Source: Escherichia coli (lineage in GTDB: Bacteria; Pseudomonadota; Gammaproteobacteria; Enterobacterales; Enterobacteriaceae). Taken from it: a DNA stretch of 10,108 nucleotides. The stretch lies in the NCBI RefSeq assembly GCF_003334335.1, contig NZ_QOWQ01000065.1; one strand, written 5' to 3'. The notes below the pieces were generated by a model. That model ran no database searches and was not told where the DNA came from. It saw only the letters and a list, made by a program, of their open reading frames with translations. Made by a program: the position numbers and the translations under genes. Shown one piece after another: positions 8,092 through 8,366 of this stretch. Position 1 is the first letter of the stretch. Every line of letters begins with the position of its first letter.

Positions 8092-8120
8092 GCCCGCGTC
8101 TCCCAGCGCGGGCTTTTTTT
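8092..8120 (+). terminator. Plus-strand intrinsic terminator-like hairpin
   Basis: GCCCGCG-TCTCCCAG-CGCGGGC followed by TTTTTTT on the plus strand (perfect 7-bp GC stem plus 7 T). It abuts the minus-oriented hairpin at the start of repeat copy A (8133..8150), giving a back-to-back terminator pair. Confidence 0.5.
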
Positions 8121-8127
8121 GTCCATA

Positions 8128-8366
8128 AGAAAGCCCCTCCGGAGAGGGGCTAAAGCCGCGTATCTGTATCATCATGCACATGGTGCCGGGTGCCTCCCGG
8201 TGAGTTCAGCCCGGTGCCACTAAACCCGCGTCATTCTCGTTTTGATAATCAGAGATTATACCGTCACCAGTCGCCCCTCCGCTCAGGGGGATTCACCATG
8301 CGAAATTTTTTTAACAAATGCCCAGTCTGACAGGCAACTGTCAACTTACTGAATTGTGAGCAACAT
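8128..8366 (-). repeat. Copy A of a ~210-240 bp hairpin-rich non-coding repeat
   Basis: Shares with copy B the ordered blocks AAGCCCCTCCGGAGAGGGGCT, CATGGTGCCGGGTGCCTCCCGGTGA, GCCCCTCCGC..AGGGGGATTCACCATGC, TTTAACAAA, CAAC.GTCAAC, CTGAATTGTGAG. On the minus strand the unit ends with GCCCCTCTCCGGAGGGGC + TTTCTTATGG (terminator-like). Minus strand also carries consensus TTGACA and TATAAT hexamers, but about 90 nt apart, so they do not form one promoter. Confidence 0.6.

Follow-up and report, generated by a model that had tools for sequence, protein, structure and literature searches.

In the late region of a lambdoid prophage of Escherichia coli, which is read from the minus strand, two terminator-like hairpins of opposite orientation stand back to back in front of nanS-p, within 0.95 kb between a tRNA cluster and this gene that carry no annotation. 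What do these hairpins terminate? We analysed the whole stretch of 10,108 nt around them, called the window in the following. The original prediction had read the pair mainly as a block of transcription in both directions. Our results point to a different explanation of the opposed terminators, namely that each of them ends one of two convergent prophage sRNA genes, an arrangement known from the literature (PMC4104026), the minus-oriented hairpin being the built-in terminator of an STnc100-type RNA. With a probability of about 0.9, we take two sRNA genes to be arranged tail to tail here, the hairpins being their Rho-independent terminators and probably also the 3' modules bound by Hfq. Family and sequence identities, coincident mapped 3' ends and covariation, all observed here, carry this reading, while Hfq binding and detection in Northern hybridizations are transferred from the literature on homologous prophages. 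The convergent architecture as such is already described in pathogenic E. coli and involves no new mechanism.

Genomic context

The features of the window are collected in Table 1. The first late gene past the sRNA pair is nanS-p, with its ATG at position 7898 of the minus strand, followed in the late direction by holin, YdfR, lysozyme and Rz-like genes. The region 7880-8340 is 100% identical to prophages of E. coli CE10, APEC O18, VR50, ML35 and many others; in the CE10 prophage the gene of the Q antiterminator is found about 0.8 kb past the right end of the window. Of 5426 complete E. coli genomes, 1360 have homologues of 7960-8160 (median 2 copies, at most 7), and at such loci the RefSeq annotation is blank. 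The module is thus present in about one quarter of the complete genomes, ExPEC included. The practical value of the finding lies in better annotation. A further strong predicted terminator (GGCTCGCTTTTGCGGGCT then T8, 8842-8859, minus strand) is located directly 3' of the last tRNA-Arg, between the tRNA cluster and the first STnc100 copy.

Table 1. Position, strand and supporting evidence of the features in the window.
Feature	Position	Strand	Evidence or remark
DNA methyltransferase	9173-10102		ORF; minus-strand late region
tRNA cluster: Ile/Met-CAT, Arg-TCG, Arg-TCT	8874-9123	-	upstream in late operon
STnc100-family sRNA, copy 1	8608-8798	-	RF02076, 136.3 bits; repeats
Degenerate STnc100-like copy 2	8396-8569	-	RF02076, 30.1 bits, under gathering score; own terminator 8425-8402
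STnc100-family sRNA, copy 3	8121-8330	-	RF02076, 165.4 bits, E = 3.9e-38, model positions 1-206
Terminator of STnc100 copy 3 (stem 8151-8132, tail UUUCUUAUGGAC)	8121-8151	-	Rfam terminal stem-loop, fold, covariation
Intrinsic terminator, 3' end of plus-strand sRNA	8092-8120	+	hairpin, covariation, EPEC RIL-seq 3' end at 8120
EcOnc08/21/42-type sRNA, long form	7939-8120	+	coordinates transferred from the 182-nt EPEC E2348/69 PP6 sRNA
Predicted short form, ~70 nt	8051-8120	+	AU-rich unpaired body, then terminator; inferred
Proximal promoter-like site (TTGCGC, 18 nt, TATTAT)	8016-8045	+	read from sequence; conserved across alleles
Terminator-like hairpin (CTGCGCAACTGCGCGG then TCTTTTT)	8008-8023	-	in nanS-p leader
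Distal promoter-like site (ATGCCA, 17 nt, GATAAT)	7892-7920	+	consensus scan, weak 9/12 match
nanS-p, SASA-family sialate O-acetylesterase, 617 aa	6045-7898	-	ORF; WP_000874512.1 in identical CE10 prophage

Two one-way terminators

The plus-oriented hairpin, GCCCGCGT-CTCCCA-GCGCGGGC at 8092-8113, consists of 8 pairs, 7 of them G-C, and a 6-nt loop, and is followed by seven T residues at 8114-8120. With a G+C-rich stem exceeding the minimum of 5 pairs, a short loop and a U-run it is a predicted Rho-independent terminator, and it ranks first among the terminator-like sites of the window, which number 27 compared to 9.1 +/- 3.4 in shuffled sequences. Its folding energy of -16.7 kcal/mol (z = -4.6) was equalled by none of 200 shuffles. 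A plus-oriented terminator had indeed been proposed at this place, about 200 nt before nanS-p, and both statements hold: the stem-loop with its T7 reaches to 8120 and the hairpin is 194 nt away from the ATG.

The minus-oriented hairpin reads AGCCCCUC-UCCG-GAGGGGCU (8151-8132; 8 pairs, 4-nt loop), followed by UUUCUUAUGG; its stem is 11 nt away from the plus terminator. Here, too, none of 200 shuffles equalled the folding energy (-16.8 kcal/mol, z = -3.3), and the element is again predicted to be a Rho-independent terminator, a weaker one than the plus hairpin. The earlier placement of a minus-oriented terminator here was correct, but its strength had been overestimated, since the U-run in its tail, UUUCUUAU, is interrupted. 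On the respective opposite strand, the U-run that a single bidirectional hairpin should have is absent 3' of both the plus (GGCAAGGAAU) and the minus hairpin (AAAGCCGCG). The two hairpins are separate one-way terminators, neither of which is bidirectional alone.

The minus-strand RNA belongs to the STnc100 family

We assigned sequences to STnc100 when the covariance-model score reached at least the gathering score of 47 bits over the full model (Rfam RF02076). The segment that ends in the minus hairpin, copy 3, lies well above this threshold (Table 1), and in the Rfam alignment the hairpin is the terminal stem-loop of the model. Copy 3 is of the same family as EcOnc05 of prophage Sp4 and EcOnc27 (sRNA103) of Sp5, and it is related to PasD. 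EcOnc05 and EcOnc27 have been reported as expressed, Hfq-associated RNAs, and by analogy copy 3 may be one, too.

Two further copies are located upstream in tandem. The terminal hairpin of copy 1 (8638-8619) has the same sequence as the one at 8151-8132, whereas copy 2 fails the family threshold; neither of them faces a convergent partner. In Stx2a phages (L003 and L004) a homologous block is found immediately 3' of stx2B, and therefore the window holds its extra STnc100 copies in the slot where these phages carry stx2AB. The presence of STnc100 3' of stx2 has been noted previously, and the RNA there is the Hfq-bound EcOnc27 (sRNA103). Tandem STnc100 copies were also seen in Escherichia albertii (L137).

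An EcOnc08/21/42-type RNA ends at the plus terminator

The original prediction had found no plus-strand gene nearby that would explain the plus-oriented terminator. This is wrong, as the hairpin ends an sRNA homologous to EcOnc08/21/42 of Sp4 and to an sRNA detected by RIL-seq in prophage PP6 of EPEC. The latter, 'E2348C_1409.E2348C_1408.IGR', was reported as an EcOnc08/21/42 homologue on the minus strand of NC_011601 at 1444797-1444978 (PMC8550237). It maps to 7939-8120 of the window, its 3' end (1444797) coinciding with the last T of the T7 tail. The Hfq-CRAC peak EcOnc08 of E. coli Sakai (1179938-1180010) maps to about 8046-8118, position 1179938 corresponding to 8118, and the peak EcOnc21 (1180016-1180101) to about 7955-8040. 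Hence, the mapped 3' end in EPEC (8120) and the low-coordinate end of the EcOnc08 peak in Sakai (8118) both fall onto the plus terminator. Over 7939-8120 the window shows few mismatches to both Sakai Sp4 and EPEC PP6 (alignment A4), and the match is on the strand opposite the late operon. The Northern probe used in the literature to detect EcOnc08/21/42 lies antisense to 8013-8046 of the plus strand, with mismatches at the allele differences.

The 5' end of the plus RNA is uncertain because the published sizes disagree: RNA-seq coverage gave 182 nt in EPEC, Northern hybridization about 271 nt in EHEC for both EcOnc08 and EcOnc21. EcOnc05 lies inside the Sp4 segment matched by STnc100 and measures about 222 nt on Northern blots. 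In the strain with the window, the plus RNA may likewise be expressed and associate with Hfq, by analogy to the homologous prophages. The overall fold of the long RNA is not significant (z = -0.9). No target of an EcOnc08/21/42-type RNA is known in the literature, of which the present finding is a reminder.

The RNA probably has two forms, one for each of two promoter-like sites on the plus strand. A candidate long form would start near 7927-7939 from the distal site, which overlaps the start codon of nanS-p and is conserved among the loci carrying this gene. The proximal site, TTGCGC at 8016-8021 and TATTAT at 8040-8045, keeps its hexamers and their spacing among the alleles, with TAAAAT in place of TATTAT in the AsxR-type alleles. 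From this promoter, a form of about 70 nt is likely to start at approximately 8051. This short form is predicted because AsxR, which takes the equivalent position downstream of an identical -35 element, has a start mapped by RACE 6 nt past the -10 element. The beginning of the EcOnc08 Hfq peak at about 8046 fits this start, and in loci without nanS-p the conserved unit begins at the proximal promoter.

In 11 loci (alignment A2) the conserved plus-strand unit comprises TTGCGC/TATTAT, an AU-rich body with CTTCACGTTTT and TTATTCCTTGCC, the hairpin and the T-run. It is kept also in L010 and L011, loci that lack nanS-p and continue directly with the holin gene. Among the unpaired stretches of the plus sRNA, the most conserved one contains UUACUUCACGU (8061-8071), which is identical to nt 40-50 of Spot 42 (spf) from MG1655. 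A match to Spot 42 of at least 11 nt was reached by 7 of 5000 shuffles; as Spot 42 was a single choice among about 100 sRNAs, this is a weak lead for seed mimicry.

Comparison with known convergent sRNA genes

Convergent genes for Hfq-bound sRNAs were described by Tree et al. 2014 (PMC4104026) in at least eight Sakai prophages, Sp3, 4, 5, 9, 10, 11, 15 and 17. They lie in the interval from the late promoter to the lysis genes, past the moron that follows PR' and before the next conserved ORF. AsxR (EcOnc02) and EcOnc27, found 3' of stx2B, form one such pair (PMC4104026). A later review named these pairs "dyads" and called their rationale unclear. Prophage sRNAs of this site (AsxR, AgvB, EcOnc27/sRNA103, PasD) reshape the regulation of their EHEC and EPEC hosts.

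The closest relatives of the pair studied here are EcOnc05/EcOnc08-21 of Sp4 (PMC4104026) and its counterpart in PP6 (PMC8550237). They occupy the same place, from the tRNA cluster to nanS-p, have the same stems in both hairpins, with one different loop base in the plus hairpin, and their 3' ends abut in the same way. The window differs from them in that it stems from an ExPEC-type prophage, identical in CE10, APEC O18, VR50 and others, that it has two additional STnc100-like copies upstream, and that an internal segment of copy 3 is different.

The dyad of AsxR (EcOnc02, RF02703) and EcOnc27 in Sp5 and in Stx2 phages of the 933W type has the same architecture, an STnc100 RNA in the direction of the late operon converging on a short sRNA of antisense orientation, and shares with the window the flanks, the -35 element TTGCGC and the nanS-p leader. 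The Sp5 locus, scored directly, holds an STnc100 gene (207.7 bits) facing AsxR (88.1 bits), and 1 nt separates their 3' ends. However, body and terminator of AsxR are unrelated in sequence to the plus sRNA of the window, and the stem of the minus terminator differs, too. By position the plus RNA resembles AsxR and AgvB: it is convergent with an STnc100-type RNA, lies between moron and nanS-p and follows a TTGCGC -35 element (alignments A2 and A3). The family itself is defined by a conserved 3' region of about 42 nt (...GUAUCUCAUGC..GCCCGAACCCAYUCGGGC), and the AsxR and AgvB models (RF02703, RF02702) gave no match on 7900-8200 even at E-values up to 10, whereas the Sp5 locus, as positive control, reached 88.1 and 40.9 bits. 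An identity of the plus RNA with AsxR or AgvB was rejected for this lack of an Rfam match.

PasD1 and PasD2 (EcOnc13; Zhu, Shabalina and Storz 2026, preprint) are situated upstream of a sialate esterase gene like the STnc100 copies of the window and have the 5' segment GCAUGGUGAAUCC...GGGG in common with these. PasD2 in prophage PP2 of E2348/69, however, differs in its 3' half and in its terminator, lacks a convergent partner, and has a gap to nanS-p of 87 nt compared to 222 nt in the window. Although STnc100 has the PasD 5' segment, the plus RNA was rejected as a Pas sRNA. Its only match on the plus strand, to OmrA-B, was driven by the terminator and was rejected as well (25 bits, gathering score 40). 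HnrS (EcOnc10/11/12, 66 nt) was another candidate not retained, its Sakai coordinates being about 5 kb away from the dyads of Sp9 and Sp10. The complementarity to the end of mazF that is reported for HnrS was not found either, though this check is weak. For Esr41 there was no Rfam match in the window.

Conservation, covariation and exchange of the alleles

Across nine distinct alleles of the junction, 95.8% of the cells in the paired columns can pair. Changes on both sides were observed in 5 of 16 pairs, compared to 1.1 +/- 0.9 in shuffles, of which only 1 in 500 reached the observed value. When the pairing partners were slid against each other, pairing dropped to 34-55% and almost no covariation was left. 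Compensatory changes across the alleles are found in the plus as well as in the minus stem; the pairing exceeds chance, and the structure is under selection. In one row (RIVM, L010) MAFFT placed the plus stem wrongly; read by eye, this stem is completely paired (GCCCGUAU/CCAU/AUGCGGGC) and contributes one more exchange of G-C to A-U.

The minus terminator occurs with at least four different stem sequences, in mosaic combination with either type of plus RNA. It is the arrangement that is conserved, not the sequence. We also observed that the sRNA body between the -35 element and the T-run is swapped wholesale between an EcOnc08 type and an AsxR type (8016-8120 compared with Sakai Sp5, L013, and with L009). 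The stem of the minus terminator is swapped independently of the sRNA body, which gives rise to the mosaics. This pattern of alleles looks like the exchange of cassettes at a fixed promoter.

Transcription of the late operon through the pair

A transcript in the late direction is predicted to cross terminators at 8859-8842, 8638-8619, 8425-8402, 8151-8132 and 8023-8008, and in the identical CE10 prophage further terminator-like sites follow after Q. The last of these five hairpins, which is kept in the loci carrying nanS-p, overlaps TTGCGC, the -35 element of the proximal promoter on the plus strand; a single palindrome could thus have two roles, in termination and as part of a promoter. On the minus strand of 7899-8090, our scan found no sigma-70-like promoter above its threshold. 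Because none was found between the hairpins and nanS-p, this gene and the lysis genes plausibly need terminator-resistant transcription. Late expression had been predicted to require either antitermination or a downstream promoter. Antitermination is plausible in view of the Q gene upstream in CE10, but the promoter was not found in 7899-8090. Such a need for antitermination is a general property of operons of this kind and not special to the hairpin pair.

The same operon logic is known from the late control of lambda-type phages (PR', tR' and Q; StxS, lambda 6S RNA), where only the Q-modified polymerase reads through the late terminators and the terminated RNAs can be sRNAs. The hairpins of the window differ from tR' in being located about 1.5 kb or more downstream of Q and in being parts of sRNA genes with promoters of their own, of which one is encoded on the other strand.

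Possible functions of the pair

Our preferred scheme places a pair of sRNA genes at the moron site of the late region, with the tRNA/STnc100 block on one side and nanS-p on the other. The minus RNA (8330-8121, STnc100) would be transcribed in the direction of the late operon and the plus RNA, ending at 8120, against it. Each terminator would define and stabilise its own sRNA and keep transcription out of the partner, while hairpin and U-tail may form an Hfq-bound 3' module, as judged from the Hfq-bound homologues. As a side effect in the lysogen, the minus terminators would help to bar transcription that originates from the tRNA and sRNA promoters from entering nanS-p and the lysis genes; after induction, Q-modified RNA polymerase should read through them. 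We infer this insulation and the read-through, as well as the short isoform and expression in the strain of the window, from the arrangement and from the related systems.

The alternative that the pair mainly insulates nanS-p and the lysis genes in both directions, the RNAs being by-products without function, could appeal to the lack of a minus-strand promoter between the hairpins and nanS-p, to the richness of the late region in terminators (27 sites compared to 9 expected) and to the unclear rationale of the dyads in the literature. However, conservation extends beyond the stems into the RNA bodies that precede the two hairpins, the homologues are abundant Hfq-bound RNAs on Northern blots, and for the sister alleles AsxR and AgvB targets in trans are proven in the literature. 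The pair is kept where nanS-p is missing, and neither hairpin acts bidirectionally alone. We therefore consider this alternative improbable. A role for the plus RNA as cis antisense is a somewhat better, though still doubtful, alternative. It would be directed against the nanS-p leader (7939-8120) of the Q-antiterminated late transcript, to which it is fully complementary. By duplex formation or by interference of convergent transcription it would adjust how strongly nanS-p and the lysis genes are expressed, or keep down leaky read-through in the lysogen. The geometry fits this role, as the long form, on the strand opposite to nanS-p, begins about 41 nt ahead of the ATG of this gene and covers the whole leader, and the distal promoter overlaps the start codon. 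On the other hand, loci without nanS-p conserve only the proximal promoter and the body of about 70 nt, both the Hfq dependence and the unpaired, AU-rich body fit the typical sRNA that acts in trans, and the EPEC homologue met the RIL-seq criteria with at least 3 interactions, mostly with coding sequences or 5' UTRs (PMC8550237).

That the plus hairpin ends a gene for a small protein, for instance the 45-aa ORF with a TTG start that spans the region (8016-8153), can practically be dismissed. This ORF runs through and past the hairpin, no Shine-Dalgarno sequence was seen by eye in front of the TTG, its sequence is replaced wholesale in the AsxR-type alleles, and it is as an RNA stem, with compensatory changes, that the region is conserved. 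Within the reading as two sRNA genes, it is a tentative and rather speculative thought that the RNA 8051-8120 represents a third allele class of an exchangeable "anti-sRNA cassette" behind the AsxR/AgvB promoter, which, with its stretch identical to Spot 42, might mimic or compete with the seed of a core sRNA or act in cis on the nanS-p leader. If so, carriage of the prophage would be linked to the regulation of host carbon sources or to the control of lysis.

Distribution of the pair

The convergent partner is not universal for STnc100/PasD. It is absent at copies 1 and 2 of the window, in PP2 of E2348/69 and at two loci from E. albertii and Escherichia sp. (L137 and L138). Because several STnc100/PasD copies thus exist without it, pairing is not obligatory for STnc100. 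In PP6 of EPEC (L015, 112-1797) the STnc100 partner (75.5 bits) is truncated at its 5' side beside an ISEc13 transposase, and the convergent sRNA is intact and, according to RIL-seq, expressed. An intact partner is therefore not needed by the plus-type sRNA either. Among species-representative genomes, a scan with one 22-mer of STnc100 yielded five loci, and here again the convergent partner was optional. A scan of viral contigs with one 14-mer gave mostly chance matches and only five relevant loci. One contig of 888 bp assigned to 'Xanthomonas pisi' (NZ_JPLE01000080.1, L141) carries an STnc100/AsxR pair with exactly the scores of Sakai Sp5, 207.7 and 88.1 bits, and probably reflects a contamination of that assembly by E. 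coli or an Stx phage.
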